Origin: Glycera tridactyla
Taxonomy: Eukaryota
NCBI GenBank assembly: GCA_965644265.1
Contig: OZ286463.1
Location: 51,398,001 to 51,462,000, forward strand
Length of the DNA stretch: 64,000 nucleotides
Direction of reading: 5' to 3'
Position numbers and translations under genes: made by a program. This document shows positions 6,205 through 59,530 of the stretch, piece after piece (positions within the stretch are counted from its first letter, which is position 1; each line of letters opens with the position of its first letter). The notes beneath the pieces were generated by a model. It worked only from the letters and a program-made list of their open reading frames with translations. It was not told the DNA's origin and ran no database searches.

Positions 6205-6423
6205 CATGCAGGCATGGATGCTAACATACATAGATAATAACCACAATTGCCTAATTTTGATGGGATCCATATCGTGTAACAAACCTTTGTTGTGTGATTC
6301 ATGTTTACCAGCTTTGTTTTTGCACTTTACTAGGGAAAATATGCTCCTGTACCTCATTATGTGTGACTCCAAACAATGAAGAAAATAGAAAATCCAAAGA
6401 AAGCAAGAATTACATATACTTAC

Positions 6424-6662: not shown

Positions 6663-7399
6663 CTGAAAACACCAATATCATTATATGATCAAAAGATCAG
6701 AAACATATCACATGATCGTGAGAAACTTCGAAGATCAAAGACACTGAAGAATGTTGATGACCTACCAGGGTAGCTTTCTATCTGTAGCAAGCCCTCTTCT
6801 GCCTGGAAAAGCCCCTATATAGTGGTAAACATTATGGGACAGTTACAATACTGACGAAAGAAAATTAAGAAATACCAATCAATCAATCTCATGGAAAAAT
6901 GGACAGGTCATTGAAGGCGTTCTTTTTTGGACCCCAGAAGATGCCTCCTTTAGATATGAAAGCTCTGGGGAACCTGTCAATCAATGGAAAAAGAAATATC
7001 TAGGACAAATGTCCATCTTGAAGTATTTGATCTTTCACTGTCTGGATGGGCATCTGGCAAAACAACAAGAAACTAAGCCGGAGGTGATAACCAAAATGAT
7101 TGCGTAAATTGACGTTATAGGCAATGAGCAATGCCTCAAAGGTCTGTATGCCCCTGGGTCAGCCACCATTCCCTTGACTTCAAGAGCAGAATCATCACAG
7201 ATAGTGCCGCCATCGGGGATGTAGACTATAATCTGATGTGCATAAAATGATCACCAGATTGCGGTCATTTCGGATGAGAGGAAACGTTCTACTTTTCCCT
7301 GATATCCCCACATACATCTCAATTCATGAGATTCATACTTATGCACTACCCTGCATTATACCCTCCGGCCTAAACACATTATGAATATCACTTTATTCA

Positions 7400-12746: not shown

Positions 12747-12999
12747 CACAAACAAATGTTTGATTCAGCCCTTTCACAACTGGTTATTGAAGTAGAAGTG
12801 AGCTATTGCTCCATGATGAAATCAACCACGCATTACATAATGCAGGGAAGAACACCAAAACCCCACGTCAATTACGGGGAGTCTTACATAAGAATGAGGT
12901 CAAAGCCAGGAGAAGTGTGTGTTCATTCATGGTTCATTTCGGTCTAACACAATAGACAGTGGCAGAGAGCAACTGAGCCAGGTAGAAACTTCCGTGCAT

Positions 13000-14280
13000 A
13001 TCGATCGATGCAAGCTTGAGCTGGAGTGTGAAATGAGAAAATTTATTTATAGTTCCTGTGACCTTGACCTTTGACCTAGGGTCACATCCATCGGGAGGGA
13101 GTTTGTTCACCATTGGGTCATTACTCTGTGTAAGTTTGGTGCATATCCATCAATGCTACTCTGAGTTAGAATGTAAAATAAGTAGCTCAATAAGTAGCTC
13201 ATGTGACCTTGACCTTTGACCCAGGGTCACATGCATCGAGAGAGAGGTGGCCTATCATTGGGTCATTACTTTGTGTGAGTAAGGTACATATCAATCAATG
13301 CAAGCTTGAGTTGGAGTGTGAAATGAGGAAATCTATAAACAGGTCCTGTGACCTTGACATTTGACCGAGGGTCACATGCACCGAAAGGGAGGTGGCCCAC
13401 CTTTGGGTCATTACTTTGTGTTAGTTTGGTGCATATCCATCAAGGCTAGCTTGATTCAGAGTGTAAAAGAAGAAAATCAATCAATAGCTCATGTGACCTC
13501 GACCTTTGACCTAGGGTCACATGCATCGAAAGAGAGACGGCTAACCATTGGGTCATTACTTTATGTGAGTAAGTTACATATCCATCGATGCAAGCACGAG
13601 TTAAAGTGTAAAATAAGAAAATCTATGAATAGCTCCAGTGACCTTGACCTTTGACCTAGGGTCACATGCATCGAGAAGAAGGTGGCCCACCAATGGGTCA
13701 TTACTTTGTGTAAGTTTGGTGCATATCCATTGAGGATAGCTTGAGTTAGAGTGTAAAATATGAAAATCTATAAATATCTCCCGTGACCTTGACCTTTGAC
13801 CTGGGGTCACATGCATCGAAAGGGTGGTGGCCTGCCATTAGGCCATTACTTTGTGTAGGTTTCGTGCATATCCATCAAAGCTCACTTGAGTTAGAGTGTA
13901 AAATGGGAAATCTATAAATAGCTCCTGTGACCTTGACCTTTGACCTAAGGTCACACACATCAAAAGGGAGGTGGCCCAACATTGGGTCATCACTTTGTGT
14001 AAGTTTGGTGCATATCCATTGAGGCTAACTTGAGTTAGAGTGTAAGTAGAGAATCTATAAATAGCTCCTGTGACCTTGACCTTAGACCTTTGAGTACAAA
14101 AATCAAATTCTGGAATATGATTTCTACATAGATCCCAGTTATGAAGTTTTATGAAAATTGGACCAGCCAATCCAAAGTTATTGCATGAAATGTGAGCGGA
14201 CGGACGGACAGACGTACGTACGTACAAACGCCGAAGGTGAAACTATAATACCTTGCTTTTTCAAGAGCGGGGTATGAAAA
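13000..14280 (+). mobile_element. Helentron-associated (HINE/DINE-1-like) element with ~145-bp internal tandem array
   Basis: TGTGACCTTGACC anchors at 13057, 13202, 13347, 13492, 13637, 13782, 13926, 14069. (GACG/GACA/GTAC)n at ~14197-14225. 3' hairpin ATACC...GGTAT at 14248-14275. 5' end not recognised. Confidence 0.75.
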
Positions 14281-16370: not shown

Positions 16371-18426
16371 TAGAGTCAAATAGCCAGAGCAGCATATGTC
16401 ATTTCAATGATGCACGACCAATCCTACCATGTTGGTACACATGAACTGTGTATGTCAACTGATGCGGGTATAAAAATAGTTATCAACAGACATGCCTGAC
16501 TCATCACCAAACAGAAATAGCCACAAATATACTATTTTTAGTATCAAATTCCCCACATGTAACTCACTCCCCCCCCCCCCCCCCGACAAGCTATCAAATA
16601 CCCATGTGATAAAGATAAAATGCATGCAGAAACTATTTCGAGCCTCATGTTTTAATGCATCGGTTGTCGAAAGTATCCATGAATAGAACAGATGAACAAG
16701 TTTCAATGTCATCATCGATAATTGCCGCGTCTGTACATGTATNNNNNNNNNNNNNNNNNNNNNNNNNNNNNNNNNNNNNNNNNNNNNNNNNNNNNNNNNN
16801 NNNNNNNNNNNNNNNNNNNNNNNNNNNNNNNNNNNNNNNNNNNNNNNNNNNNNNNNNNNNNNNNNNNNNNNNNNNNNNNNNNNNNNNNNNNNNNNNNNNN
16901 NNNNNNNNNNNNNNNNNNNNNNTGTGTGTGTACAAGTGTTGAATTTGTGGATGAGGTAGTGGGTGTGTTTCCGTGAGTATTTTGTGTGTGTCAGTCATTT
17001 ATGTGTGTGCATCTGCATTCTGGGTGTGTACATGCTTGTGGAACCTGAATGAACAAGTTCTGTGGGAATACAAAAGTACAAAAGTACAGAGATTAAGATG
17101 AAGCAATTCGGTGATAGCCTCAAAGTGAGATACTTATACACATATTGAAACCGTTTTGTCAGCCTGTTCAGTGTGGGTAATTCACATGCTTTCAAGAATA
17201 CACAAAATCGGTCATTAATGAGAAGTGAATTGCACCATGTGTCACATTTACCCATTGAAAATTCACAATGGATTATTGTCCAGAGGAATATAATATCCAC
17301 CACTGAAAACTTGGTCATAGAGGGGGGTTGGTTTTTCATGAAGGGCTCATTAGTTGGAGGTTTTACTTATACAGTGAAGGTGTCTTGGGAGACCCCTCTT
17401 TTGGGAGACCTCCTTCTTATGGGAGACCACTCTTTATCGGCTCTTCTCTATTTGACATAGTCAAATATACATCCAATGAGAGACCACCTATCTTGACAGA
17501 CCACTTTTCTTTGGCATTTGCGGCGGTCTCCCAAGACAGGTTTCAATACATTGAGAATGGGGTTCTTACACCTTCTTGCAGAACAAACTCCAGATCCACT
17601 CCGAACTCTTTCCATACCAGTGAGTGCATACTTCACATACAACTAACATGATCATAATTATCTACCATGATCCTTTGCTTCACATCCTGGTATTCAGTGA
17701 ATACCTATGGATTCCTTATGATGGATGCGCATTGCTTTCAGGCTATCTAAACCATTTTGGGCAAATCCCCTCTAAGAATATATTTCCAGCACCTGATCGA
17801 TCCTTGTTATCGTGAGGTGATTCCATACTTTTTCCGTGACATCTGGTCAAAACTTCAAAATTCTGTACTTTTTTCAAGGCCTGGAATGGAATTTTCTCAA
17901 ATTCCATACTTTTTGGCAGGTGTCCATACCTAGTATGAACCCTGAAATTCATCATGAATGGCATCAGCTGTCAATCAATCAACCAACATAGCCCTCTCTT
18001 ATACAGCATTTGACTCGGATCATACAAAGGGCTCACCCGGCTCAGTGCTATCGTTTCCCTACCCATAAAAGGCCTCCAGGTCGACTCAGTCAACATTTGA
18101 CACAAATGTCATCCTCTGTCAAGATGCCATGCCAAGATGGCATCCAGTCCTCACAGCCACTCACAACAACAGACAACAAACAGCAGGTGCAATGTCAAAC
18201 ATTGAAACATCTCCCTGGAAAGAGGACACCAGTCAGTGGCTATATTTAGCAGAATTCTCCAGGGTGCGTGAATCATGTCCAAAGTGCAATACAGAGGATG
18301 TCATACTGCAGATCCAGGTTCAAATCCACTAGAAATTGAATTATTTCTGAGAATGTAATTTGTACCTTTCAATGGTGTATTGTGAAATGTGGTTTCATTC
18401 AGAGGCGAGACTGTCTCTGAATGGGC

Positions 18427-21399: not shown

Positions 21400-22296
21400 T
21401 ATATATTTTGCAGACGTGGCTCTGCTCAAATTAAAAAAAAATATATATATATATATGTAAGTGTCGAAAAAACAACTCATGTGGCTATTGTCCAACTGGC
21501 TCGAAGTTCGACCAAAGATTATTCATTTATTTATTCATATATCTATTTATCTATTCATTTATATACATATTTTTTTCACAGGGCACAGACATGCATAGCC
21601 TGGTCTTTTATATATATATTCATACATACATGTAAGTATAGTGATATACAAAAACTATTTGTATACAGGAGTGTCATGATAGTGAAGTCTCTCACATCCA
21701 AATATGACAGATGCATTTCACATGCTCAAGTCACCACTTCTCATCTGATCACATATATATATATATATTTGATGGCACAATTGGATTGTGTAGGACCTGC
21801 GATCAGCTTCAAAAAGGACTTCATGTAGTCAGAACACTTGTGAAGACTTGCTCTTATTCCTCAGTATTCATATGACAAGTCCGCCAATATTAATAGGGAT
21901 CTGTATGTATGAATTGATGAGGATCGGCATGCTGGCATTGAATAGAAAAGTTGTCATTGTCATTGATCATACTTCTAGTCATCAAGAATATCAACAATGT
22001 CTGTCAGTGAGTTTCATCCCAAATCCAATCTCAATAACAAATAGATGAAAAAAAACCACTAATCATATATGTATTCAAGGCTGGTTTCAGGTCTTCATGA
22101 AAATAGTCTGGACAGATTTTTCACATTTGACCAAATTTATGCTACCTTCCTCACCCATACATGAAGGTAACTACTCAGTTCCCTATAGACATTTGAATGC
22201 AACGGGAGTTCACCAGGTTGGAGATGCATGTATAAGTCACTGATACAACATTGTAATGTGGTAATTACATTCTCAGATACTTCTGATTTTCTTGCA

Positions 22297-22472
22297 CAGT
22301 GAAACCTGTGATGAGAGACCCCCAACGAGAGACCACCTCTTGACGGGAGATTGCTTTTCCAGGCAGTTTTTCTATTTGACATATTCAAATATAGCTCTGA
22401 CAAGAGACCACCTGTTTTGAGAGACCGCTTCCTGGTGACATCTAGGGCAGTCTCTTGTGGCCGGTTTCACTG
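22297..22472. mobile_element. 176-bp MITE (GAGAGACCACC family; relatives at 2450-2622, ~17373-17550, 33382-33535, 45287-45438, 51489-51662)
   Basis: CAGTGAAACCTG ... CCGGTTTCACTG ends; internal TTTGACATAGTCAAATATACCTC block shared among copies. Confidence 0.78.
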
Positions 22473-22945
22473 TGATGGGTTCAAAAGCAGATTGTTCAAA
22501 AGCTGGATTTCTATCATAGCACCAAACCACATAGACAAAGTTGGGTTGAGCAGTCTGTTCCACTCAGCTACCCAATCACCAATACTAACAACCAAACCAC
22601 CTCCCCAAGAGAAAATCCCAATCTGACAGAGACACCAGGAGACCGACATTGACCAACCTGTTCTACTTGGGTTCAAGCTATTTCGTGAAATCAAAATGCA
22701 AGGGGGTCGATAGGCATGAAATTATTAGTCACAGGTACACCATTGAGAAATGCAGATATCACTCTCAGTAATCCCGTTTTTTTAAGCAAGCCTGAACTAT
22801 GGGAAGAAAATCACATGATTCCTAAGAATATCTCATTGGAGATATACTCGTCAAATCAACAAAGGGATCACGAAAGATGATCTCATAAGTTAGGTTGCTT
22901 CTCATTAAGAGTATTCACAAGCACATTTCACTGTATTTGCTCATA

Positions 22946-26081: not shown

Positions 26082-26705
26082 CAATGAATCTTATGAAGAG
26101 GGAGCTGGATTTCAGGAGATTTATCCTCCTGAAACTTTTGGAGAGGGAGCTGGATTTCAGGAGAGTTATCCTCCTGAAACTTGTGGAGAGGGAGCTGGAT
26201 TTCAGGAGAGTTATCCTCCTGAAACTTGTGGAGAGGGAGCTGGATTTCAGGAGAGCCATCCTCCTGAAACTTGTGGAGAGGGAGCTGGATTTCAGGAGAG
26301 TTATCCTCCTGAAACTTGTGGAGAGGGAGCTGGATTTCAGGAGAGCCATCCTCCTGAATCTTGTGGAGAGGGAGCTGGATTTCAGGAGAGTCAACCTCCT
26401 GAATCTTGTGGAGAGGGAGCTGGATTTCAGGAGAGTCAACCTCCTGAATCTTGTGGAGAGGGAGCTGGATTTCAGGAGAGTCATCCTCCTGAATCTTGTG
26501 GAGAGGGAGCTGGATTTCAGGAGAGTCATCCTCCTGAATCTTATGGAGAGGGAGCTGGATTTCAGGAGAGTCAACCTCCTGAATCTTGTGGAGAGGGAGC
26601 TGGATTTCAGGAGAGCCATCCTCCTGAATCTTGTGGAGAGGGAGCTGGATTTCAGGAGAGTCATCCTCCTGAATCTTGTGGAGAGGGAGCTGGATTTCAG
26701 GAGGG
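26082..26705. repeat. 45-bp minisatellite, ~14 highly similar copies
   Basis: GGATTTCAGG recurs every 45 bp from 26107 to 26692. Confidence 0.95.
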
Positions 26706-32351: not shown

Positions 32352-32453
32352 CTTTGCTTGGAATGAGAATCTTTGTTGAAATGATTTGCCGCATTGTTTA
32401 CACTTGCCTTCTTCCCGTCTTCGATGCACCCAATGATGCCGCATAAAGGTTTG
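32352..32453 (-). CDS. DGKZ: DGK type IV exon, first half of C1b ([34 protein letters not shown])
   Basis: TTTATGTTGCAG acceptor and AAG|GTAAGC donor; 102 nt, phase 0/0. [16 protein letters not shown] is the type IV DGK C1b signature. Confidence 0.96.
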
Positions 32454-32880
32454 CTGCAACATAAATAAAACAAAATCTCACTCAATCCTGGCATTATCCC
32501 ATAGTCAACTGAATGATATGAAGGAATATGGATTCGGCCACATTCAAACATAGACAAAGCCATCCATTTGAGAAAAAAAAGTACAGTGAGACCAGTGACC
32601 AGACCCCCTATCAGAGACAACATTTCTGGGTGGTCTCTCATTGCAGGTTTCAAACACGTGTACAAAATGCACCAATAATTTTCAACACAACATTATTATT
32701 ATCTGATACTCCTGGCTACAGTTGAATTTCTGCTATCAGAAAAATAACAGAAGTGGTGTATTCATCCAGATGACCATGTGGTATGGTGGAATAAGTGACC
32801 CAACGAGGACTACCTTATCTTATCAATAAACTGACAGTTCATCAAATAAATGCTGAAAAACCGGGGATGAGAGCTACAGT

Positions 32881-33155
32881 TGACCTACATTTGAATGTGA
32901 CAATGACCTATCTTGACCTACATTTGAATGTGACATTGGGGCCATTCGACTGGGCGGTTCCGTGAAGCACGAAAAATCAGGAAGTAAAACTTGCATTCTA
33001 CTGGAAGCGTTACTCCACGGCCGATTTTCTCCGAGCAGTAACTTCTTTACGATCGTGAAGTAACTATTTCCCGTGAAGTACCAGTCGAATGGGCCCGATG
33101 ACCTATCTTGACCTACATTTGAATGGGACATTGACCCATCTTGACCTACATTTGA
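32881..33155. repeat. 33-bp tandem repeat (~4 units) interrupted by a MITE
   Basis: TGACCTACATTTGAATGTGACA(A/T)TGACCTATCT units on both sides of 32938-33096. Confidence 0.85.
32938..33096. mobile_element. 159-bp MITE with GGG(G/C)CCATTCGACTGG TIRs (PIF/Harbinger-like termini)
   Basis: 16-bp TIRs with 1 mismatch; CpG-rich; interrupts a 33-bp tandem repeat. TSD unclear. Confidence 0.7.
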
Positions 33156-34571
33156 TTACGTAGATATGGCTGAGAATGGAGCACCTGGACATGAAATACC
33201 ACAACCCTGGGGCATCCTATATCAAAGCACAGTTGGCATTTTCCACTCTCTTCCCAGAGGCTAAACTCCTAAACTACCACAGCATATGTGCAGATTATAA
33301 TAGAAGTCCCTGCTCTATGAATACACAGCACCCTGCATAATTCAGTGGTATTAAATGGAGTAATATATGCCTGCAAGCTAACAGTGAAACCTGCAAAAAT
33401 AGCAACGCAAGACCACTTTCACAGGGCAACCTCCCTATTTGACATAGTCAAATATACCTCCACCTAGAGACCACCTCTTTTGAGAGACATCTCTTTGGTG
33501 ACATTCAGGGCGGGCTCTCGTCATAGATTTCACTGTATTCAAATAAGTCACTAGTCAGCAAGTCCAATGAATCGAGTGAAACCAGTGACGAGAGGCGTTC
33601 TCTCATGACAGGTGATAAGCAGGTTCCATGGTACATTATATAGTAGCATATACACTGGTAAATAAATTTGAAAAAAAATCACCAAAATACAAGCCGAAAA
33701 CAACTGTATACTAATGTAGTTATATAAATCAAACTCGATCCTGTCAGTCATACTGATTTAAAAATCTGCAGTTCCAGCTGAGAACAGCTCTGGGTGAAAT
33801 ATATCAAAACTGATGCCCCTGAACACGTCTACCATCACTTCTATGATTGAATGAGATGAAGCTCATTTTATAAGCATTTCTCCAGGCTGAAATACAGAGT
33901 AGATTATCTAGGGAATTCAGCAGAATGACATAAAGAAATTCAATCATCGGAACAGTGAAGTGGATGTTATTGGCATACCAATGGTTGTCTCAAACCCTCA
34001 TCAAAAATCAGCCATGTGTTTCATGCTGCATTTTGTGTGTTGTCTCCAACCCTCATTGAATATCTTGTGCGAGATCCATGTTTTAGCTGATGCACATGAT
34101 CATGAAGTTTCTTCTAGTGTGTTTCATGGCGCATGCATTTAAGGAGTGATCCTATCATGCCATAAGGTGTAGGAAAAGATCCCTTGCAGGAATGGCCCTA
34201 TTCCCTTCTGTCAATTATATCTCATGAAATATTACTTGGTCTATAGACAATAGACAATAGACAATAGACAAACTTTTATTTAAGTTCAGGCAGACATTGG
34301 GTCATTATAACAATGATGCTTCCCCCCGTCCCTGAAAAAGATAGAATAGAGCAACTGTAATTACCACATGGTACATGAATAGAAAATGTTGTTGTTTCTC
34401 GGCTCGTCGAAAACTTAGTATGATGAATACTTTCTATGAAATAACAAACTACTTGTTCATAGCAACAGCTGGTATACATTTCATGGAGAAAGTCCCTATC
34501 TTATTGGAGAAATCATAGACCAGACCCATCCTAAAGTGCCCGGTCCTGCTCAAGACTAAAACATGGCAGAA

Positions 34572-37500
34572 TTAGTAGTTTTGATTTTTGCATTCGTTTT
34601 GCCACTTTATGAAAGCGGTCTTGAAAGCTCCTTTTCTATTTGCTGGTATTTGTCTTATTTCAGAGGGCAATCTATTCCATAAATGGGGGCCAGCGAAGGA
34701 GAAGGCTTTTTGGCCTTTTTGAGTGCGGGAATTTGGAAGTTCAAGGTATAATTGGGTTGAGCCTCTGGTGCCCATGCCATGTTCGCTTGAGAAAGACAAC
34801 AGGTCATAGAGATACTGTGGAGATATATTGTGCACATTTTTATACATTGCAACGCCAAGATGAAGTTCTCTTCTATCTCTTAATAAAGGCAAGTTCAATT
34901 CATGATGTGTTTCAGCGGATGGGGTAAATCTACTCCGGCACAAAATAGTTCTGCACGCCTTGTTCTGAAGGACTTGAAGATGAGAAGCATCCTGTTCCGA
35001 GATACAGCAGTATACAGTATCGCAGTAGTCGAAAACTGGTACAATAAGGGACTTGTACAATTGCAAGCTGGTATCTGCAGACATATATTTTCTACTCTTT
35101 GCCAAGGCATATAGTCGCTTTGCAGCTTTCTTTGATATGTATTCGCAGTGATCATGGAAGGACATGTGTTTGTCTAGGATAATGCCCAGGTATTTAAAAA
35201 TTTGAACCGGATCAATGGGCTTGTTATGGACTTGTAGAGACAATTCTGTAGAAGAGAATCGCGACTGGCGATTCGCAAAAAGTAGTGACTTCGTTTTCTC
35301 GACATTGAGGAAGAGTTTATTAGTCACTAACCACTTGGAGATTCTATTCAGATCATCTTGGAGAGTATTTTCAATCACAGTTGGGTCTGGTCCACTAAAA
35401 TAGAGTGCTGTGTCATCCGCATAAAGAGACACGTTGCAGTCATTCAGAACAAGTCGGAGATCATTGATATACAACAAGAAAAACAGCGGGCCCAAGATCG
35501 ATCCTTGAGGAACACCACATCGAACCAATCTCTCACTTGATTCATGGCCATTGATACAAGAGATTTGGGGCCTGTCAGTGAGAAAATTCTTGAACCAAGT
35601 GAGCTCAAGACCCCTGATTCCATACCACGATAGCTTTGTGAGAAGGCGTTCATGATGGACCGTATCGAATGCCTTTCGAAAATCTAAAAACAGCATACCA
35701 GTCATATCCCCCTTGTCGAGCGATCTTAGGATATGGTTTGTGATGTGCAACAAGGCAGTTTCTGTCGAATATCCTTTACGAAAGCCAGATTGATTCCTAC
35801 ACAGATAGTCATGCTGGTCAAGAAATGCTTGTAATTGATCAAAAACAATGCGTTCAGCCATTTTGCTGATGAAAGGAGTGAGTGATATAGGCCTGTAGTT
35901 GGCTGGGTCACTCCTGTTCCCACTCTTGAAGATTGGTTTAACTTGTGCACGTTTCCAGGGTTTAGGAAAAATGCCAGTCTGAAGACTTGTGTTTAAGAGA
36001 CATAGAATATATGGCGATACAATATCAATGGCATCATGTAATAGCCTGGCATATATGCCCTTCATGCCTGTTGATTTTGAAGAGGAAACCTTTGATATGA
36101 GAGTTTCAACATCTGCTAAGGTGACTTCGCTGAAGATAAAATTATCACCTTCATGAATTATTATTGGATCATCAATGGCTTCACCTGTGATACCTTCGGC
36201 TAGGGATTCAGCAACCTCGATTATGTATTTATTATATATTTCGCAGATTGCAGAAGGGTTGTTTTCATTGCGTAGCTCCTGGATATGAGTTGCCTTGGAG
36301 CTGGTACCTACAAGTTTATTCAGAAATTTCCAAAGTTTCCGAGAGTTGAACTTGTTTTCTGACACTTTTTCCATGAAGTACTCTTTTTTAAAGGTTTCTC
36401 TAGCATTGTTTCTCCTGTTCCTGGCTCTATTGGCTACAATAATGTCATCAGGGAGATTCGATGATTTTGCTTTGGCAATAGCATCTTTTGTTTCATGAAT
36501 CATGGAAATATAGTCATCATTCATCCAGGGAACATTTTCCTCACGGATATTCATGATCTTGTAGGGAGCTGCCTTGTCTGATTCAACAATTAGGATATGG
36601 AAAAAAGTCTCGGAGAAAGAGGCAAGGTCAACGCCCTCAAGGACCAAGTCTTCGAGAGATTCAGATAGATTTGTTCTAAAACTGTCTTTGGAGTATGAGG
36701 AGAAATCTCTCGCGAAAATTGACTTCTTCTGAAGTGACTTTCTGATGCCCTTTCTTGCTACTACCACCATGTCATGGTCACTGATTCCAAGGGTGCATAC
36801 TCCAGAGTTCACATAAAGCTCTTTGTTGCTAACACAGATGACGTCGATCAAAGTCGCCCCATTCAGCGATATCCTGGTGGGCAGGGTGATTAGTTGGGCA
36901 AATGATTGCATCATTAACATCCTACTAAAATTTGTTTTAGCTGGTGAGGTAGCTAAGAGGTTGATGTTCCAATCTCCCAGGATGAGAACGTCCTTCCTGC
37001 TGTATTCATCCAAGAGATTCAGTAAGTTAGAGATGGATGTCACTGCTAGTTGGTGATCAGTATCAGGGGGTCGATAGCAATTGAAGATAAAGGTTGGCCT
37101 AGTATTTGGCAGTGAAAGCCTAAGGCCTTGACATTCCAAATGCCCCTGGTTCAATGAGAGCATCGGGTTTTGAATAACATTGAGTTTCTGGTTAAAAATA
37201 GTTACTAGGCCACCACCCCTGGCTCTAGTGTCAAAATTTCTATCTTGACGTAGTATCAAGTAACCAGGGAAATCAAGAGACCCCTCAGCAACTCTCTCAT
37301 GGAGCCATGTTTCACTGATGAGTAATAGGTCTAATTTGGTCATTGTCAGAATTCTCTTGATGTCATCAATTTTTGAAGGTAGGCTACATATATTCAGATG
37401 GGCTATCGTGATTCCCTTCATGTTACATACATCGGACTCAGTTAGATAGCTACAAGGGCCGGGATTCAATTCGATGTCGCCAGATAGGGATAACAACCGG

Positions 37501-37616
37501 GTACATAAGTAACGATTTGTGGTAACACTCACAGGCAAGAACCTCATTAACATATCACAAGTCATGAGAAATTGGACCCATAAAAAATCATGGTAAAAAT
37601 CATAGAGACAGCTCAA
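34572..37616 (-). CDS. LINE ORF: 2A-like peptide + apurinic endonuclease + reverse transcriptase
   Basis: APE motifs: HLNICSL, SETWL, CYRPP, LGDWNI, TLIDVI, SDH. RT motifs: YRPISL, QSGFR, LDFRKAFD, GVPQGSILGP, YADDT, KYLG. The track start is TTG; the first in-frame ATG is at 37565. No internal stops. Confidence 0.95.
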   Translation of the reverse strand: MSCLYDFYHDFLWVQFLMTCDMLMRFLPVSVTTNRYLCTRLLSLSGDIELNPGPCSYLTESDVCNMKGITIAHLNICSLPSKIDDIKRILTMTKLDLLLISETWLHERVAEGSLDFPGYLILRQDRNFDTRARGGGLVTIFNQKLNVIQNPMLSLNQGHLECQGLRLSLPNTRPTFIFNCYRPPDTDHQLAVTSISNLLNLLDEYSRKDVLILGDWNINLLATSPAKTNFSRMLMMQSFAQLITLPTRISLNGATLIDVICVSNKELYVNSGVCTLGISDHDMVVVARKGIRKSLQKKSIFARDFSSYSKDSFRTNLSESLEDLVLEGVDLASFSETFFHILIVESDKAAPYKIMNIREENVPWMNDDYISMIHETKDAIAKAKSSNLPDDIIVANRARNRRNNARETFKKEYFMEKVSENKFNSRKLWKFLNKLVGTSSKATHIQELRNENNPSAICEIYNKYIIEVAESLAEGITGEAIDDPIIIHEGDNFIFSEVTLADVETLISKVSSSKSTGMKGIYARLLHDAIDIVSPYILCLLNTSLQTGIFPKPWKRAQVKPIFKSGNRSDPANYRPISLTPFISKMAERIVFDQLQAFLDQHDYLCRNQSGFRKGYSTETALLHITNHILRSLDKGDMTGMLFLDFRKAFDTVHHERLLTKLSWYGIRGLELTWFKNFLTDRPQISCINGHESSERLVRCGVPQGSILGPLFFLLYINDLRLVLNDCNVSLYADDTALYFSGPDPTVIENTLQDDLNRISKWLVTNKLFLNVEKTKSLLFANRQSRFSSTELSLQVHNKPIDPVQIFKYLGIILDKHMSFHDHCEYISKKAAKRLYALAKSRKYMSADTSLQLYKSLIVPVFDYCDTVYCCISEQDASHLQVLQNKACRTILCRSRFTPSAETHHELNLPLLRDRRELHLGVAMYKNVHNISPQYLYDLLSFSSEHGMGTRGSTQLYLELPNSRTQKGQKAFSFAGPHLWNRLPSEIRQIPANRKGAFKTAFIKWQNECKNQNY
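37455..37499 (-). other. 2A-like (StopGo) peptide RLLSLSGDIELNPG|P
   Basis: Exact match to the D(V/I)ExNPGP consensus, preceded by G and a leucine-rich stretch, directly N-terminal to the APE domain. Confidence 0.88.
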
Positions 37617-38829
37617 TGGTTGTAGTTATACCTTGCTTTGTTTCAGAAATAAATTCATCAAGTCATAAGAAATCACGGAGGTAGGTTTTCATTACATCAG
37701 TAAAGCATAGAAAGAAATCTGGACTCTGGACTCAAGTTCCCGCCACTGCCAAGGTTGAGGAGAAGAGACCATGTACAGAATCCTTTCTTACATCAGGTTA
37801 TTAGGAAATTTCCATCCAAAAAACACAGGAGAGACATTGTCCAGGAGGCATATTTTGGTCTGGGAAATTTTTGTAAAGAAATTCTCAGAGCATGATGATC
37901 TGGAGAGGCTTTGACCAACAACATAGAAAGACAATATGGCGGGAAACCTTTAATTGGTTATGTTAAATTATGAAATTTCTAGGGATCTGTTTAAAATATC
38001 TAGGGATCAATTTGACGTGGGGCGGCAATAACCCCTTGGAAGTGGGGGACCGAGTTTATTTGAATTGGGGAAGATCCCGGATGTGGCCTGAAATACTTTT
38101 TCTCACTCCAAGTATAATCCTAATCCAGATATCATATTTGAGAATTATCCCATGTATTCTGATCATAATCTAGCCAGAGTTGGGAAAATATACATCAATC
38201 AATCTATCAATGCGATGATTCAGTAGAACAGGGAAAGAAATCACACCTCTTAACAATGATAATTACCAAGATAATTACCACCCAATTTCAACAGGAAACC
38301 CCACAATTCCACCATTAATTACTGAGGCAAAAGGGTTAATTTCCAAATGAGATACAAACTCATGAGAGCATGAAGGACTTGATGGGCTAATGTATACATG
38401 ATGAATTCTAGCACACAGATTGTTTGGTAATGCAATATATGCCAGAGCAGCTACCTGATTCTCTATTGCTCCAATCGATAGCTAAAACAAACAGTTTGAT
38501 GTTCTCAGATTTAAGTCAAGGAGAGATCAAACATTTCAAGTTTTAGCAGCTTTTGGCCATCAGGGCAGTATGACAAACTTCCAAGCTTGGCTGGGATTCC
38601 TCTAGGATGGAAATCCTTTGAGCGAATGATTTTAGCAGGATGGAAATCATTTTTAGCAATCCAGAAAGCACTATACAGCATTCTATTGAATCAGTTCAGC
38701 AAAATGGGAAAACTGTCACATCCTCATGTCAAATCAATTTCTACTGCAGTCTACACTGAAACAAATCAAATAAGATAAACATTCACCTACAATAAATCAC
38801 CACCACCTTTGCGCCATCAGCAATGAATA

Positions 38830-39851
38830 CAGTGAAACCTGTGACGAGCGACCACCCTATAAAGCACGAAAAAGTGGTCGTTCAAGACAGGTGGTCGCTG
38901 GTCGCAGGTTCGATCAGCTGGGCCGGTCGCGAAAATATGGATACATAGGAAATACTCCCAATATCGCCCACCAACCTTTCGCTGAATTGACATCGATATT
39001 CGCTGGATATCTCACAAAATTCACACAAATGGCATGAAAGAGACGTGAAACATTCCAATGTTGACGAATACCGACACCTTCATGAGGAAATATTGCCATT
39101 ATTCGCCAGAAACGGTGAAATTCGTGAGCTTTCGGCCGCATCAAACTAACTGCGTAAAACCATCGTTTCTTCGAGGGAACACCTCATTAAGCATAATTTA
39201 TGCGGGTATCCCCGGTTGCCAACAACATCAATAATAACTAATCTACAATCGAAACGTTGAATCCGCAAAGAAATATCATCATAGAACGAAAGTTTATCAT
39301 AAACTGTGCTGAAAAACGTCTTTATCAATAAGAAATATGTGTTTCTGAAGCCGATGGAGATGATTTTGGATCCCGCCATTTTTTTTTCATTCTCCTTATG
39401 GGCCCGTGAGTTTCGTCACGTGTTCGGTGATACTGCTGCTTGCTACGCAATAAACAATGGATAAATCGTTATGTAGACATGTTATCGCAGCAAAACCGAC
39501 TTATCAGTTGTTTCTTTGTGAAGGTTAGTCTATCATACAGGCGCGAACGACCGGACAATAGCTCTTTGTCTTCCTGCAGCGAAGCGTGAAGTTGTGAAGT
39601 CGTGAGTTCTTCGTTCATTCATACACGGTGACCTGATTATCGCCCATAGCAGCGCTGTTTACGATGCTGATTTGCCTCGAGTGGTCGTTCGTCGCAGGTA
39701 ATCTGTACTATTTGGGCCGGTCGCTGGTCGCGTTAGACAGGTGGTCACTCGTCAGAGGTGATTTTTGAAGTATTTGGTTTTTTGGCGGGAAAAATGATCT
39801 TTCAAGACAGGTGGTCGCTTGTCAGGGGGTCGCTCGTCGCAGGTTTTACCG
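38830..39851. mobile_element. 1022-bp non-autonomous Tc1/mariner(pogo)-type element, TA TSD
   Basis: TIRs CAGTGAAACCTGTGACGAGCGACC versus CGGTAAAACCTGCGACGAGCGACC; TA flanks; subterminal ACAGGTGGTCGC repeats; CpG-rich. Confidence 0.85.
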
Positions 39852-40129
39852 TATTATCTTAGTAAATCATTCCAGCAGATCAAATTCAACTTCAGCAATT
39901 GACTTTACTAATTAGCTAAAACTAAAACGCTAATCTGTAGAGGGAACCCTGCTTGCTGCACTGTTCATCTCAAATCCTTTTTTTAAAGAAGAAAAAACAT
40001 TTTCTCAAAGACTAATAACACTCCCACCTGAACTAGAATCTAGTTGAGTGGGCGTGCATATGACACGATGAAAAGCAATAACTATATTGAAGAGAACACA
40101 ATGAAGCCAGGAATAGCTTGACTTCTTAC

Positions 40130-40186
40130 CTCTCGATAGTTCCTTGGCCCCGCTTCCCTGAAGGTTGGTTTGCATTTGAAATTAAT
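40130..40186 (-). CDS. DGKZ: Diacylglycerol kinase type IV (DGKZ/DGKI/rdgA family), internal exon, C1a-C1b linker (INFKCKPTFREAGPRNYRE)
   Basis: TTTTTGCAG acceptor and GAG|GTAAGA donor; 57 nt, phase 0/0. Translation matches the recalled DGKZ segment INFRCKPSFRESGSRNVRE. Invertebrates usually have one co-ortholog of DGKZ/DGKI. Confidence 0.93.
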
Positions 40187-40779
40187 CTGCAAAAACAAGA
40201 CACAAGATAAGGTTAGAACAAATAGTCATTATTTCATGGAATAAAAACTGTCAGGAGGGAACATCCACAATTCAGGGAAAGCTTCTGTAAAAAACAGAGA
40301 AAACCCTTTATTGCTATATCTCACTCAGAGAGCCAAAGAGATCCAACATCACCCATGCACTGGCTAACCCTAAATTTGAAGCGAAAACTTTGGAATTTGA
40401 GCCCTAAAGTTGCTGAAAATGAAAATGAACAGTAGAAAGAACATGACACCAGAGATTCATCTAGAGCCTACAAAAATTCTCTGAATGTGAAAAATTATCT
40501 GTTAGATTATTGTGCATCTTTCATAGGAGGCAGGGAATAGGACTATTTCTGGACCTCAGGCAGTATGACCCTGCTTTCATTTACAGGAGGCTTTCATGCT
40601 GTAGTAGGCCTGTAAAATCTATAATGAAAGATGGTAGGAAATTTTGAGATGCACTATAGCTACAGCTATATCAAAACAATAAATGACTACTGATACAATA
40701 ACCAGTACATTTTTTGACAAGCACAATGACTTTTCGACAATAACTCCGGATGCAATGATCGGTGCATTTTTTTAAAACA

Positions 40780-43800: not shown

Positions 43801-45286
43801 CCACCCTCCTGAATCCCGGGGAGAATGAATTCAGATTCGAGAGAATGAAAAGACCAAACTCACTCTCCCAATGGGGAAGTGTGAATTTCTGAGTTGATCA
43901 GAAAGTGATAAATTTATCGTCAATACAGATCACAGCAGTTTTAACTCCACCAACAAAAACCCTATTGCCAATGAGATGACTTTGCATATACATTTACCTG
44001 CATGAGTTTAATTCTGAAGAACAATTCTCAACAAAAATAGGTTGGTGGTACTTGGGTAGTGATTCACTTCACCGACAAGTTGGAATATATATCTTGATAA
44101 ATAGAACACTCACATAAATGTCTTGCTCTCAAGATAGCCAGATTGAAGCTTGTCTCCTTTTTTGAACTTTTGGAACAAATTCTGGAGAGTGAATTTATTT
44201 TCAGGAGAGTGATTTTTCCAGTCTGCTGTCCTGATTGGAGAGAGACTGACAAAGTTTTTTTCGTGAAGAATGCTATGACCATGAATACACTGTTAAAGAT
44301 TCACAAACGGCCCCTCGATGAGCGGACTCGGTCTAAACTTGCCACATTTCATGGAGAGACAGCCAGGTCACCCAGCAAAGAAATATAAGACACCAATTTA
44401 AAGCTGTTTCTATGGTAACAGACATGGTTACTGATTTATCAGAAATATCACCTAAGCTGGTATCATGGATCTGCTAGTCAACCCTCCTCAGACAAAATTC
44501 CATCTCAACATTGCACAATGTAGTTTTGTCTTTCATGTGAAATCACCTAGAATCTAATCCCGATCGGCATTATGGTTTCAATCACCCCATAATTCATCTA
44601 CAGTATCATCAACAGTTTTATTGAAATGACCTTTTTCCATTTACATCAGATCAAGAACACTCACAGTCAGATCACTTGGACACGTGAAAGAGTTAGGTGC
44701 AGTCACTCAGAGTCTCAAGTTGACTGTATTGTTCACAACTGTGAGCAGGTCTGCTGCTTGGATGGGTGACCAAAATGAACAAAGATCACCATCCAAAACC
44801 AGATCTACACGATCGATTGTACAAATGTATCAGATTTGCACTAAGGATGTAGCTCTGCGTGGAGGTAAGTTGGTGAAACCTCTGTACTCCACCACTCCAT
44901 TCCAACACAATGTACATGGGTACTTGTCTTACCACCATCTCACATCTACAAAAATTGAACAAACAACTTTGACTAGCATCAGAAGGAAATTATATTTAGC
45001 AATACACCATCAGAATTAACAAATTACATTCTCAAGAAATCATCAGATTTCTTGTTGTGGATTTGAATGTACATTTCTAGCATCACACCATCTGTGCTTA
45101 GCCTGTGTTGGAGCATGCAGTCCTATGTGCTGCACTATCCAAACTGCTTGAATAAAGCAGGTGACAAGAGCCAGACAAGAGCACACCCCACTCCCATATA
45201 GACCCATTGTGACTACATGTATTTATTCATTGGCCAAATGAGGTTTCACTTCACTAAACACAAACAGTGTGAATTTCAGAATGATA

Positions 45287-45438
45287 CAGTGAAACCTGTC
45301 TTGGGAGACCCCTCTGTTGGGAGACCACCCTCTAATGAGAGACCACTCATAGTCAAATATACCTCCAATGAGAGACCACCTGTCTTGAGAGACCGCTTTT
45401 TTGGCGTTTGGGGCGGTCTCCCAAGACAGGTTTTACTG
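45287..45438. mobile_element. 152-bp MITE
   Basis: CAGTGAAACCTGTCTTGGGAGACC ... GGTCTCCCAAGACAGGTTTTACTG; near-identical family member at ~17373-17550. Confidence 0.8.
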
Positions 45439-46389
45439 CACTATGCTTCAAAATACACTGTTGAAAGGGAAAAATTACATTTTCAGAAATCTTCCAATTT
45501 CTTTGTGATTCAAACAAGGCATCTTCAGCATGGCACCAACTACCAAGCCTGTTAAGGAGCAACCTGTCTTGCATGCTGAGCAAAGTTGACTACTACAAAA
45601 AAAAAGCTGCCACATACCCCAGCCAGGAGCACACTCCCCTCCCCCTATCCTCTCACGCTGTTTGAAATATTCATAAGTCATTGCCATCTATTTGCTAAAT
45701 TGGTGAACGAGCTATTTGAAATATTCAAGAGCCATTACCCTCTATTTCCTCAATCGGTGAACAAGCTATCTGAAATATCACACGTAATGTTGACTGCTAC
45801 AAAAAAAGCTGCCACATACCCCAGCCACTCCCCACATAGACACACAGAGACCCAGTTGACTATCAGGTCATACTCACGTTTTTGAAATTCTCTCACAATG
45901 GGAGATGTGTTTTGGAAAAGGAATGTTATTCGGGTCAAGTGTACATTGCAGGATTCAGACTGCTGCTCTCGGGGATATCACCTGAGTGGTCAGTCTGCCA
46001 CTAATGCCAAGGTTTTTGTGAGATGGGCGCTGCCACTTAACTGGATTCTGGCCGATAATGGATGTTGCTGCTCACATAGCGTGTACCCATGTACTTTGAG
46101 AATACCATGCTGAAGATTGTGCTGCAGGTTTTTCATAGACATGATTCTACAGTCAAACCTGTCCCAAGTATGCGCCCTACCACACAAGAAAATGTCTTCT
46201 GCAACCAGTCTTCGTATTAGGCTACTTCCCAAAATCTCAGGAGAATGAAAATGCCAAACTAACTCTCCCAATGAGAGAGTGAATGTTTGGTTGACTTTCA
46301 CTGCATATTCTTTCATCATGCTGATAATATATTTTCAAATGAAGAGGTGACAGTTTTACCGGGTCATCTTGCCTATTCTCAAACTGTTG

Positions 46390-50527: not shown

Positions 50528-51488
50528 TTCCTCATGTTGACACAGACACCGACCTTCTTGATTTTCTCACTAGTGACTTAACATAGCCACTCAACCAAAA
50601 CTAAGATTTTTGTTTGCCTCTAAATATCTGCAAACCTGGTTTGGCAATAATAAGCCTATGTGAAATAGTCCAAAACAGCAATTGCCAACTTCAAAAGGGC
50701 CAAACATGGCAGGATGTTGGCAAATGCTGTTTCGTCACAATCAGAGCTGTGATGGTGGGTAATGTGACACTCCTTGAAATGATTACATCATTTCAATAGC
50801 CCTTCTGTCGAGTAGGTCAAAACCAAAATGGCAGCTTCCATGACCTGATTGTGGTGCAGCAGCTTGTAGCTGCCGGAAGGCATACTTTCAGAAAAATACA
50901 TTTTCTCCCCATGTAAATCTCCCTAATCTGTGGGAGATATTCACTACAATGGTGCAAAATGTTGAAAATGATAGGAATCAGGAATTAGGATGTCACACAG
51001 ATTTTGAAAGTCAAAGTGATGTCAAATTGATATAGTCAATAAAGTTCACACAAAATGAGAAAATATTTGGGACAGTTTTCAAATATGGTGCAACATCAAA
51101 TGTATCAAAGCAATACAAACATTGAAAACAAGAGAGCAAATGTGGAATGTATGTTAGTAGAAGCATCAAACTGATTTCAAACAGGGGAGAGTATCAGAAA
51201 GATTGAGAGGAGATATGCATTTCAGATTGACAAGTGTAACAGAGATCTAATGAGTTGAGTTAAGAGGCAGAGTAATAACACTAACAAACCTTCACAAAGC
51301 CAATCAGAATCAATTCATAGAAGTAATTATATATGATCATAGCCAACTGAAAATCTTCTACAGATGAACGCTTTCCTGATACACTGTCAAACTGGCCACA
51401 AGGCTGAGGAAACATGGGACTCAACTTGGCCCAACCTTAATTATCCACAAAATCCATAAATCTGTCCTATCTATCTTCTTATTCAATA

Positions 51489-51662
51489 CAGTAAAACCTG
51501 CAATGAGAGACCACCAATGAGACCACCTCCAAGGGGGAACCGCTCTTGCAGGGCAGCTTTTCTAATTGACATTGTCAGATATACCTCCGAAGAGAGACCA
51601 CCTGTCTTCAGAGACCACTTTTTGGTGACATTTGGGGCAGTCTTTTGTCACAGGTTTCACTG
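51489..51662. mobile_element. 174-bp TA-flanked MITE
   Basis: TA-CAGTAAAACCTG ... CAGGTTTCACTG-TA. Confidence 0.82.
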
Positions 51663-54315
51663 TACCAGCGCAAATGACAAATATATCTGACCTACAAAAT
51701 ATACATGTATATTATTCATGCAAAATTTCTTGAGCATCTGCCCACAATAATTCAAATCACTGGAGTAAAGATATCAGTAGGTTTTATTATAGTGATAGTT
51801 GTAGAGCAACAGTGACATGAAACACTGAGTGTCCCATGCAAATCTCCTATCAACGGTCATGTTTGGAGTGCTCATCATTTGCCCAGTATCTCCCAGGAGT
51901 CGTTATACCTCCGATAACAAACTAACATGGGATTCCTTACTCACCCTGATTGATAGGTTTTTCTAATTGAACATCTCATAAAGGGCATTTCCTTGCAACT
52001 CTTTTATTGTCTTTCATTTCCACAAATTGACTGCAAACTATCACCTTGCGTACAACCATCATGTTTGTCCCAGACTCTACCTCAAGTACTTCCATAAAAA
52101 ACCAAGTCACCCTTTACTCAGTATCTGGAAAAGCTCAATGTTTAAATTGGAGATGTCAATCAAGACTAGTGTTGGCAATCAGTTACTTTTTCAGAATCGA
52201 TGTAATCAGCTGGCCCGACTGATCAGTTATCTATTATAATCAGTTTGTGACATAGGTTTTCTCCCCTGCCACCACCACCAATTGTGTTTTTACTTCAGAA
52301 TGACATAGGCGAGGATGTACAGAAAGAGGCCTTGGAGGAAATTAGGTATATTTTTCGTGAAGGAAAGCTGGCAGCTTTTCGTCATCAAATCCATCACTTC
52401 CTTATCGCATAAGGCTTTATTTGCCATTGAAATATATATGCGCCAAGCATGTTTCTCTGTTCTGATTAAGGATGTAGCAGGGAGTTTTTCTGGTTTCCTG
52501 ACTGGCACCTATGGCATAAAACTAGTAGGTCACTTGCCCACCTTCCTAGATACCTCTATCACTGTCCTTCAAACAAATACTGCATTATTTTCTTGCCCAA
52601 ACATGTGCGAACACCAGATGGGAATTTTTTTCCAACATTGACCCTGGTGTGGGTTGGTGGCTGTGTGCTTGAGTAGATGATCGGGTGAATGATGGTTTCC
52701 TGATGATAACTCAAAAAGTTTGAGTTGCTTTGAGGTGAAATTTTGTGGTTAGGATTGCCTGAGGTCTGGCAAGAAACTTATGAATTTTGAGATGGTTATG
52801 TTGAATTTTTTCCATATTTCAGCTATTTTTCATTATTTTTGGTGAAATTCAACAAAATGTTCAATATTGGCTAGCGAAAAAACGAATTTGGTGACATGTA
52901 ATTATTTTTCACTGATTTTAATTGTCCAAAGATGAACTACAAAATGAATGAAGAAAATTGAATCCAGCAAATATTCCTGTATGGTATGTGGGGTGATTTG
53001 TGATCTTTCAGTGATTTTTTAATTGGTTTCCATGGATTATTTATCAAGAAAAACATTTTGTCCATGTGAGTTCCCCAATACATGTTGAATTAGGATACAA
53101 GACAAAATAAATAAGAGGTTTGATTCATCTGAATATAGTGTTCATGTGATATTTCTTGATGAAACTATATCCTGTTATTTTTTGCATTTTCTCAATATTT
53201 CGACAATTATATAGATAGCTACAGCTGAAAAGCGAGCCTGGTGACCCCAACTTTTTTTCAGGAAATCTGATCTATACCTCACAAGAAATAATCATATGAA
53301 ATTTCAAGGATGTGGCAATTTTAAAAAAAACTGCCTCATTCAACCTTAAATCGTTTACATTCCTGCAATCAATTATCTAGTTTGCAAACAAGATCGATCG
53401 ATAATCGTGACACCACTAATCAAGATGAAGCTTGATTTTCAAATATACGATTTCATTTTCTGAAACTATCCTGAAATAATCCGATGAATATCTGTTCTGA
53501 AACATACAGTAAGTTTTCAGCACTTTCTGAATTTGAATATTTCACCCAAATTTTCAAAATTCCGAGAAATTTTCGAAAATTTTCGAAAAAATTGACATTA
53601 CTATAGAATGGACTTCACACTGTGTCAAAGTGCTCAATCCTGTTGGCAAAATCTGCTAAAAAAAATCACGAATATATTTCAAGGACATTTGTTGACAACC
53701 TGCCTGATTTCAAACAAGTTTGGACAAGTGGTATTGTTGAACTACAAAAGATGCTTTGAAGCCAAAAATCAAATCCCATTTGATCATATAAGCTGCCTCT
53801 CAAATATGTCAAAGTTGGTCTGGCAAACACCTCTTCTCAACAGCCATAACAATCACTACCATACTGTCATGTAAATTCGTCAAAAATGGACGACCAACAA
53901 TAATGCGCCAACAACAAAAAAATATTCTTATTTGAGATACCGGGTACTTCGCAGTGATAGACCACTGTTATTCTCCGATGTTATTCTCCAGTGAATTAAA
54001 ATTCAAAATTGAGTGATGAACCGGAGCATTTGCATCTAGAAACAGATCCAGGGTTTCCTCTCTAGAATAGCATTTTAGCAATAGCTGATCAGTGAAGTCA
54101 CATGCTAAAGAAAAAATTTAATTCGCTAAAACAATTCGTTGAAGTAATTTTCATTTCTGGTGGCACAAAAGTGGTAGTGGTGGTTCATTGTGATGAACAT
54201 TTCCCTAATTTCATTCGTTTTGTTGATGAAAATGTGAAAAAAATGTATTTGACAAAAGAATGCCATTTATGTTTCACTCTGGTAAACTGATTCAATGAAA
54301 TGCAATCCGATTTCT

Positions 54316-55615
54316 AACAAGGCCACAGAGGGGCAAGATAACCCCACACATGGGAGCACAGTGGGCAACCCATATTGCATACGGGAGCACAGTGGATAGC
54401 CCATATCAGGGAAGGTCATTGAGATGTTTGGTCGGCTGTGTAATTAGTCACTGGATGACTGTGTAGAATGTGAAAATCTAACAGTAGCACCTGTAACCTT
54501 CACGTTGACCTATGACTTAGGGTCACATGCATTGTAAGGGAGATGTTGTAACATTACTTGATCATCCCAGATCAGTTTGATCTATATCCAACAATGCTAG
54601 CCTGAGTTATTGTGTGAGATGCGGAAATTTGAAAAAAGCTCCTGTGACCTTGACCTTTGACCCAGGGTGACATGCATCGAATGGGAGATATCTCACTATT
54701 GGGCCATTACTTTGTGGAACTTTGGTGCATATCGATCAGTGCAAGCTTGAGCTGGAGTATAAAATGAGTAAATCTATGAATAGCTACTGTGACCTTGAAC
54801 CTTGACCTAGGGTCACATGCATCGAAAGGGAGGTGGTCCAAGATTGCATCAAGAGAGAGGTGGCCTAATATGAGGCATTACTTTGTCAAAGATTGGTGCA
54901 TATCCATCTAAGCTAGCTTGGGTCAGAGTGTAAAATGAGAAAATCTATAAATAGCTCCTGTGACCTTGACCTTCAACCTCGGGTCACATGCATCAAAAGG
55001 CCCACCATTGGGTCATTACTTTGTGTGAGCAAGTTACATATCCATCAATGCTGGATAGAGTTATAGTGTAAAATAAGAAAATCTATAAATAGCTCCTGTG
55101 ACTTTGACCTTTGACCTGGGGTCACAAGCATCGAAAGAGAGGTTGCCTACCATTAGGTCATAACTTTGTGTGAGTTTGGTGCATATCCATAAAGGTTAGC
55201 TTGTTATAGAGTGTAAAATAGGAAAATCCATGAATAGCTCATGTGACCTTGACCTCCAACCTACAGTCACATGCATCTATAGGTAGGTGGCCCACCATTT
55301 AGGACTAATTGGGTTTTTACTTTGTGTGAGTTTCGTGCATATCCATGAAGGCTGGCTTTAGTTGGAGTGTAAAATAGGAAAATCTATAAATAGCTCCTGT
55401 GACCTTAACCTTTGACCTGGGGTCACATGCATCGAAAGGGAGGTGGCCCACCATTGGTTCATTACTTTCTGTAAGTTTGGTGCATATCCATCAAGGCTAG
55501 CTCGAGTTAGTGCGTAAAATGAGAAAATCTATAATTAGCTCCTGTGACCTAGGCTCACCTGCATTGAAAAGGAAGTTGGCTCACCATTGGATTATTACTT
55601 TGTGTGAGTTTGGTT
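54316..55615 (+). mobile_element. Second copy of the same ~145-bp-array HINE family, 3'-truncated
   Basis: Same repeat unit (anchors 54643, 54788, 54959, 55097, 55242, 55398, 55543). Begins AACAAG-GCC..GGC-AAGATAACCCCAC; no microsatellite or hairpin end. Confidence 0.72.
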
Positions 55616-59214: not shown

Positions 59215-59530
59215 TGAGATCTGCAACAAGACCCCTGATGAGACCACCTCTGATGGAAGACCACTTTCTCAACCCAGCTTGTCTATCCAAAACCTCTATA
59301 TGAAGATCTCTTTATGAAAACCACATCAAAAAGTGCCTTTATAGGCAGGTGGTCTGTATAGAGAGGTCATTCACTGTGGAAACACTACCAAGGTTACCAC
59401 TTAAGGTGTGGTCTTTATAGAGGTGGTCTTTAGAGCAGCTTTAACTGTAGTCGAATAGAGACCACCTCTTTTGAGCGACAAATATTTGGGTGACATTCAG
59501 GGTGGCCTCTTGTTGCAGATTTCACCATAC
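59215..59530. mobile_element. Nested decayed MITEs (AAAGACCACC family inside GAGAGACCACC family)
   Basis: An outer-family start and end (GAGACCACC ... GCAGATTTCACC) enclose an inner copy ending GCAGCTTTAACTG-TA near 59448. Confidence 0.55.

Follow-up and report, generated by a model that had tools for sequence, protein, structure and literature searches.

The window analysed here, a 64,000-nt stretch of Glycera tridactyla DNA (assembly GCA_965644265.1, contig OZ286463.1, positions 51,398,001 to 51,462,000), carries on its minus strand a retrotransposon of the long interspersed nuclear element (LINE) type, whose single long open reading frame (ORF) has a virus-like 2A (StopGo) motif near its N-terminus. 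The element had been pointed out in an original prediction made from the sequence alone, and we assessed it by comparison with protein families, relatives and contigs from other runs. Its parts are as follows.

34572..37565, minus strand: single long ORF (ORF2-type) with a leader containing the 2A-like motif, an apurinic/apyrimidinic-type (APE) endonuclease, a reverse transcriptase (RT) and a C-terminal region (ORF list, Pfam, alignment of relatives)
37455..37514, minus strand: 2A/StopGo-like 20-mer RYLCTRLLSLSGDIELNPG/P, the slash marking the predicted skip (sequence; register against the F2A numbering in PMC12846837)
36774..37397, minus strand: APE-type endonuclease domain (Pfam PF03372 and residues matching relatives)
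35178..35906, minus strand: RT domain with YADD (Pfam PF00078, RVT_1)
37566..38081, minus strand: non-coding 5′ part of the element (516 nt or more), with 15 ATGs, short repeats and promoter-like words (contigs, stops, motif positions)
34272..34571, minus strand: 3′ untranslated region (UTR) with a predicted hairpin (34336-34285) and, after it, AATAAA (34280-34275) at its end (sequence, folding, the relative L001)
34243..34271, minus strand: tandem-repeat tail (TGTCTAT)x4, 4.1 copies (repeat scan; related tail in L001)

The minus-strand frame is open from stop to stop over 34572-37625, corresponding to 1017 amino acids (aa), or 997 aa when counted from ATG 37565. Two Pfam families matched the ORF protein above cut-off, Exo_endo_phos (PF03372, E = 1.2e-6) and RVT_1 (PF00078, E = 4e-35), and PF14529 was matched too; by sequence, L1 ORF2p chains were the best PDB matches to the RT. 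We took the 150 best relatives of the ORF from a search of 1.84 billion proteins, a collection from which the ORF protein itself is absent. At 79 of the 83 ORF columns that are conserved in at least 85% of these relatives, the ORF has the consensus residue, and the remaining four are conservative substitutions (F to I, Y to F, L to F and L to M). The endonuclease residues N58, E85, Y164, D198, N200, D241, D263 and H264 are each the near-invariant residue of the relatives, and D717 and D718 of the RT are invariant in all 150. These eight endonuclease and two RT positions, which are of the catalytic type in the APE and RT families, are thus all intact. An APE endonuclease is followed by an RT within one ORF, a self-comparison revealed neither a terminal repeat nor a long terminal repeat (LTR), and the 3′ end consists of a poly(A) signal and short repeats, all as defined for LINEs. 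The uninterrupted APE-RT frame that had been proposed is therefore confirmed by its length, its Pfam matches and its 10 of 10 catalytic-type positions.

The 2A-like sequence RLLSLSGDIELNPGP occupies ORF residues 23-37, its end lying 20 residues N-terminal to the first conserved endonuclease Asn, in agreement with its proposed place immediately before this domain. It is of the canonical LLxLxGDIELNPGP type and contains the sole NPGP found in all six frames of the window; from the composition of the ORF, the expected number of D[VI]ExNPGP matches in it is 1.4e-6. Besides the class A core, the motif has leucines at −13, −12 and −10, the counterparts of which in F2A are L6, L7 and L9 (PMC12846837), and active eukaryotic 2A peptides are enriched for leucine at −13 to −10 (bioRxiv 10.64898/2026.06.17.732966). 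The skip is predicted to occur between Gly36 (37460-37458) and Pro37 (37457-37455), so that the leader from ATG 37565 to Gly would be 36 aa, the length originally proposed; the in-frame ATGs 37565, 37553 and 37547 give leaders of 36, 32 or 30 aa. No domain or hydrophobic segment was found in this leader, the highest 15-residue hydropathy being 1.0. The motif shares the LLxLxGD(V/I)ExNPGP register with the viral class A 2As of foot-and-mouth disease virus (F2A) and human rotavirus C, and the 9-residue core of the latter, GDIELNPGP, is identical and is listed with ~82% cleavage (PMC8623073). Unlike the viral peptides, it has no upstream protein to separate, and the efficiency-setting residues from −19 to −14 differ.

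Part of the stretch was present in 9 of the 19 runs listed, with none on record as RNA, and contigs of four of these (X1, X2, X3 and X9, from three studies, with X2 and X3 belonging to one) were aligned to 32400-40400. The listed X1-X3 pieces cover most of the ORF at ~99% identity, without a gap in any ORF piece; X3 record 21 (36843-37545) crosses the 2A-like motif in frame. Among the 40 differences listed, to which 416 further ones add, 22 lie in the ORF: 15 are synonymous, 6 are nonsynonymous and 1 moves the stop by one codon. The expected synonymous share is 0.22-0.28 (P = 5e-5 or less). These differences represent 22 of the 25 in the ORF part of X1 records 1, 3 and 4, and P is 5e-4 when the remaining 3 are counted as nonsynonymous. 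The nonsynonymous to synonymous ratio is ~0.11-0.16. Neutral drift would be expected of a dead insertion inherited from a common ancestor. The synonymous bias therefore indicates that the window copy and the contigs descend from self-copying lineages, and that the window copy is too recent to have decayed much. These results show that the LINE family replicated under purifying selection on its ORF.

Overlapping contigs of 99% and of 85-87% identity occur within one and the same run: X1 records 1 and 2 have 9 differences in 1076 nt and 19 in 128 nt, respectively, and X9 records 26 and 27 have 2 in 203 nt and 22 in 167 nt. Such mixed identities point to a multi-copy family with old and young members; no second copy of the element was found within the 64-kb window. 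Two bins, 33735-34001 and 38274-38540, had no contig cover in any of the four runs, with depth falling towards the 5′ end, and were not used as evidence. Taken together, the domains, the residues, the contigs, the substitutions and the literature support the earlier description of the element as an APE-RT LINE that is young and intact and carries a 2A-like motif of a kind already known.

The extent of the 5′ region had to be revised. The original prediction had set the 5′ end at 37945, with ~330 bp between it and the ORF; this position is 380 nt from ATG 37565 and 320 nt from the open frame. X2 record 12 aligns on 37459-38081 (13 differences and 4 gaps in 621 nt) and X3 record 22 on 37765-38054 (10 differences and 3 gaps in 289 nt). 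Both contigs bridge 37945 and continue to 38081 and 38054, respectively, and at least 516 nt therefore lie upstream of ATG 37565. If the bridging contigs came from this very locus, 37945 might still be a boundary, but this is made less likely by the synonymous bias and by the point at 38081 where one contig departs. Several stops occur in each of the three sense frames from 38400 to 37625, and the upstream region differs by 2.7-4.5% between copies with 3-4 gaps, compared with less than 2% and no gaps in the ORF. The upstream 516 nt thus behave as non-coding. They contain no ORF1-sized frame, and the four open frames of at least 75 aa within 38515-39415 gave no Pfam match. In this LINE family no ORF1 directly adjoins ORF2; an ORF1 further 5′ is possible. 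We also considered two other explanations. That a single private indel has shortened a long hydrophobic leader is ruled out by the several stops in every upstream sense frame and by the several gaps that the region takes between copies. Splicing of X2 record 12 from the host exon at 40186-40130 (see below) was unsupported, no such joint or piece being among those listed (there are 48 further joints). Short repeated motifs lie at 38070-37972 and cluster, together with promoter-like words, at 38070-37937. These putative words are what we take to be a GC box, a CCAAT and two inverted TTCCCGCCA. The latter form a perfect 9-nt inverted pair at 37737-37745 and 37937-37945, 191 nt apart, and presumably resemble E2F/YY1-type sites.

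At the 3′ end, the polyadenylation signal and the (TGTCTAT)x4 tail were found as described, and both have counterparts in the relative L001, whose 3′ end has, in the order seen in the window element, a hairpin, then TGAACT, then AATAAA and finally a TGTCAT repeat. The L001 hairpin is significantly more stable than its shuffled versions (z = −2.18). Four of the 10 predicted hairpin pairs are changed on both sides, in a comparison of the window with L001 only and in a poorly aligned part. We found no target-site duplication: nothing of 9 nt or more was shared between the 3′ flank and 37500-39500, where only chance 6-8-mers occur, away from the junctions. No Rfam match was obtained in 33500-40500. 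As a separate observation, three X1 contigs match the AATAAA-TGTCTAT tail (34243-34282) and then carry other sequence upstream. Other elements, such as short interspersed nuclear elements (SINEs) or sister LINEs, may thus share it.

L001 is 58% identical to the ORF protein over residues 533-989, while the best full-length database relatives are only ~35% identical and the best relatives from endonuclease-region searches 31-39%. In a metagenome scan with the single ORF protein, 0 of 24 stretches were confirmed. A tree of 149 relatives (P0047 having been dropped) groups the ORF with the RT fragments P0052 and P0094 with a support of 1.0; its deeper branching is not resolved. The RT words DTVHH and TKLSW each occur once in the available part of the RTclass1 file, in which line breaks can hide matches, and both occurrences are in Crack-7_BF; the L2 entries compared there differ from the ORF at the places of these two words, and neither LLDLSAAFD nor RLDYCN, which those entries contain, occurs in the ORF. 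From by-eye and motif comparison, the RT looks Crack-like, of the L2 lineage in the CR1 group. According to a 2026 survey, Crack itself does not form one well-supported clade, and the same survey detected no ORF1 in vertebrate Crack elements (PMC13343379). One of the relatives, P0003 (1405 aa), has a GDSL/SGNH esterase domain (residues 54-213) in one frame with the endonuclease, and between the two a 2A-like GDISLNPGP (residues 763-783). A GDSL/SGNH esterase is the usual ORF1 type of CR1/L2 elements.

The layout of the element, a single ORF with an N-terminal 2A, is already published, and the element adds a family rather than a concept. About 50 APE-type elements (Rex1, L2, L2A, Crack, CR1 and Ingi) of invertebrates and Xenopus have a 2A ~40-80 aa into ORF2, most of them without ORF1 (Odon et al. 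2013, PMC3708506). Like these, the window element has GD(V/I)ExNPGP at the N-terminus of ORF2 ahead of the APE domain, no adjoining ORF1 and an animal host. Unlike them, it has a leader of only 30-36 aa and, as read from its sequence, it retains the Glu that is replaced in all of their Crack members, whose motifs are very weak or inactive. With Crack-7_BF it shares the DTVHH and TKLSW words, and with the Crack clade, represented in the RTclass1 set by Crack-7_BF and Crack-1_SP, the AATAAA and short-repeat tail. It also resembles ZfL2-2/UnaL2 (PMC4176376) in having one endonuclease-RT ORF, a predicted 3′ stem-loop followed by short repeats, and 5′ UTR repeats, at a size of at least 3.84 kb compared with ~4.2 kb for ZfL2-2. 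The latter differs in that it belongs to L2 proper and was shown to retrotranspose, for which this single-ORF element needs its 3′ stem-loop, and a 2A is unmentioned in the accessible part of that source. Repeat-bearing 5′ UTRs have been described for ORF1-less elements (PMC13343379, PMC4176376). A full-text search for the Crack clade together with 2A-like sequences yielded Odon et al. 2013 alone; the peptide tables of the 4,218-peptide 2026 screen and of the 2,200-peptide 2025 survey (PMC12338488) may hold this peptide or a close one.

On balance, we consider it rather probable that the window contains a young copy of an autonomous, ORF1-less, Crack-like (L2 lineage, CR1 group) non-LTR retrotransposon, inserted into a diacylglycerol kinase gene within a 7.7-kb intron and in the sense direction, with the 2A acting on the output of endonuclease-RT protein. 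Ribosomes would start at one of the ATGs 37565, 37553 and 37547 and translate a leader of 30-36 aa that is essentially the 2A itself. At NPG/P, a share of them would skip the bond to yield a Pro-initiated endonuclease-RT of 961 aa, and others would read through or drop off. As established for ZfL2-2/UnaL2, the ORF protein would then bind its own RNA at the 3′ hairpin, with the endonuclease nicking the target and the RT priming on the repeat tail. As the leader has neither a domain nor a hydrophobic segment, the likeliest role of the 2A is to throttle the output of endonuclease-RT and to trim the N-terminus of the endonuclease, and not to separate two useful proteins. A partly efficient StopGo, limiting the endonuclease-RT and freeing its N-terminus, is our best reading of the motif. 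Throttling and the release of an ORF1-like function have both been proposed for LINE 2As (Odon et al. 2013, PMC3708506), as has a reduction of output (bioRxiv 10.64898/2026.06.17.732966), and an element as short, intact and young as this one, whose motif is canonical and whose leader has no cargo, would separate these ideas. The stronger statement, that a currently replicating ORF1-less LINE of the Crack lineage keeps a fully canonical, working 2A without upstream cargo, is one that we consider less likely than not. If it is true, 2A would be kept in LINEs as a throttle or an N-terminal trimming device, not as a substitute for a separate ORF1, and the element would offer a compact, intact system for direct measurement of the effect of 2A on retrotransposition.

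Several observations weigh against this interpretation or parts of it. The clade assignment comes from by-eye comparison and not from a tree with labelled references, and the hairpin of the window element is no more stable than its shuffles (z = −0.99; z = 0.80 for the last 161 nt). With its four leucines between −19 and −10, the motif falls in the range associated with a lower protein yield and not with clean skipping (bioRxiv 10.64898/2026.06.17.732966), and a core motif alone is insufficient, several CR1 elements with a largely conserved motif being inactive (PMC3708506). Fifteen upstream ATGs precede ATG 37565, the context of which is weak. ATG 37421, behind the motif, has an A at −3 and opens a 949-aa endonuclease-RT without the 2A. 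Among relatives having at least 35 residues before the endonuclease, a 2A-like motif is present in 9 of 64 and a canonical one in 3 of 65. The nearest relatives, P0052, P0094 and L001, are without an N-terminus and thus uninformative about conservation of the motif in the near lineage. Likewise, 0 of 80 related loci, most of them without an N-terminus, had a 2A-like motif on the sense strand, and a search with the leader alone gave no candidate relative. One rival reading is that the motif is a non-skipping relic or only a stall signal, in which case the endonuclease-RT would be produced either as an uncleaved fusion or by initiation at ATG 37421. Many LINE 2A-like motifs, including those of the Crack clade and several of CR1, are weak or inactive (PMC3708506), and 59% of ORF2p-associated peptides gave reduced protein (bioRxiv 10.64898/2026.06.17.732966); ATG 37421 lies in a better context than ATG 37565, and the 36-aa leader is without cargo, whereas leader lengths across 13 clusters formed by the 2A-bearing relatives range from 44 to 782 aa, and 9 of the 13 have a strongly hydrophobic segment (15-residue hydropathy above 2). 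However, the weak Crack motifs all have their Glu replaced, whereas here G, D, I, E, N, P, G and P are kept together with the leucine register, and the X3 contig spans the motif in frame without a gap. We therefore regard a relic or stall signal as a real but somewhat doubtful possibility.

Another rival reading is that the copy is 5′-truncated at ~38081, the full element having an ORF1 or a longer repeat-bearing 5′ UTR, then the 516-nt spacer, and then ORF2 with the 2A. X2 record 12 carries 730 nt beyond 38081 that find no match in 32400-40400, enough room for an ORF1 of 240 aa or for more 5′ UTR. LINE copies are commonly 5′-truncated, and some 2A-bearing elements (CR1-26_BF, CR1-53_BF and CR1-1_LG) keep ORF1 (PMC3708506). 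An open sense frame of 221-305 aa was present upstream in 5 of the 9 fetched loci with a placeable endonuclease start, all from distant relatives and none with a 2A-like motif; in three of these five (L021, L023 and L024), however, the frame ends much nearer to ORF2 than 516 nt. Moreover, the 730 nt come from one contig only and may be the flank of another insertion just as they may be a longer repeat-bearing UTR or an ORF1, and both the short repeats and the promoter-like words are concentrated immediately inside 38081, a pattern to be expected close to a 5′ end. We judge truncation to be unlikely on this evidence. The original statement that the element has no ORF1 accordingly holds for the 516 nt next to the ORF, with their stops in all frames and their indels, and does not extend beyond 38081, where the 730-nt extension leaves room for 5′ truncation. 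A domesticated, single-copy LINE-derived gene nested in the kinase intron and selected for a host function would also show an intact frame, the low nonsynonymous to synonymous ratio and no second copy in the window. Selection through rounds of retrotransposition yields the same ratio, though, and the intact 3′ hairpin and AATAAA-repeat tail in common with the 58% identical relative, the overlapping contigs of unlike identity in single runs and the departure of one contig at 38081 make domestication very improbable.

The setting of the retrotransposon, on which the original prediction was silent, is an intron of a host gene, whose flanking exons are as follows.

40130..40186, minus strand: host exon upstream of the element, 57 nt, flanked by AG..GT, diacylglycerol kinase gene (frame continuity and likeness to DGK zeta/iota)
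32352..32453, minus strand: host exon downstream of the element, 102 nt, flanked by AG..GT, with a C1-domain-like His/Cys pattern (frame continuity; DAGK_cat exons further along the strand)

The reading frame of the exon at 40186-40130 continues, across the element, into that of the exon at 32453-32352, and the element fills half of the 7,676-nt intron in sense orientation. A Pfam scan covered 119 of the 135 open frames of at least 75 aa, leaving out those of the element itself and of the low-complexity window end. DAGK_cat exons were found on the same strand at 6423-6677 and 5277-5567. Neither of the two small exons matches Pfam alone; from their likeness, we take them to belong to a DGK (diacylglycerol kinase) zeta/iota-like gene. 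This gene spans at least 35 kb (40186-5277, minus strand), with exons from 12425, at ~6550 and at ~5500 in addition to the two small ones. The AATAAA of the element constitutes a sense intronic poly(A) signal in the kinase gene, and an insertion of this kind could affect the host transcript.

Other repeats occur in the window. A short inverted-repeat family, resembling miniature inverted-repeat transposable elements (MITEs), is scattered through the introns (33422-33541, 38824-38909, 39790-39855, 2451-2625, 17369-17543, 22296-22473, 45284-45441, 51488-51665 and 59435-59525), and many contigs match it in all four aligned runs. At 26085-26703, a 45-nt tandem repeat (13.8 copies, 96% matches) is open in four frames over 212-269 codons; these frames gave no credible Pfam match, and the repeat is probably a minisatellite. 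Two arrays of a 145-nt satellite-like unit, at 12994-14089 and 54461-55614, are ~78% alike and lie 41 kb apart.

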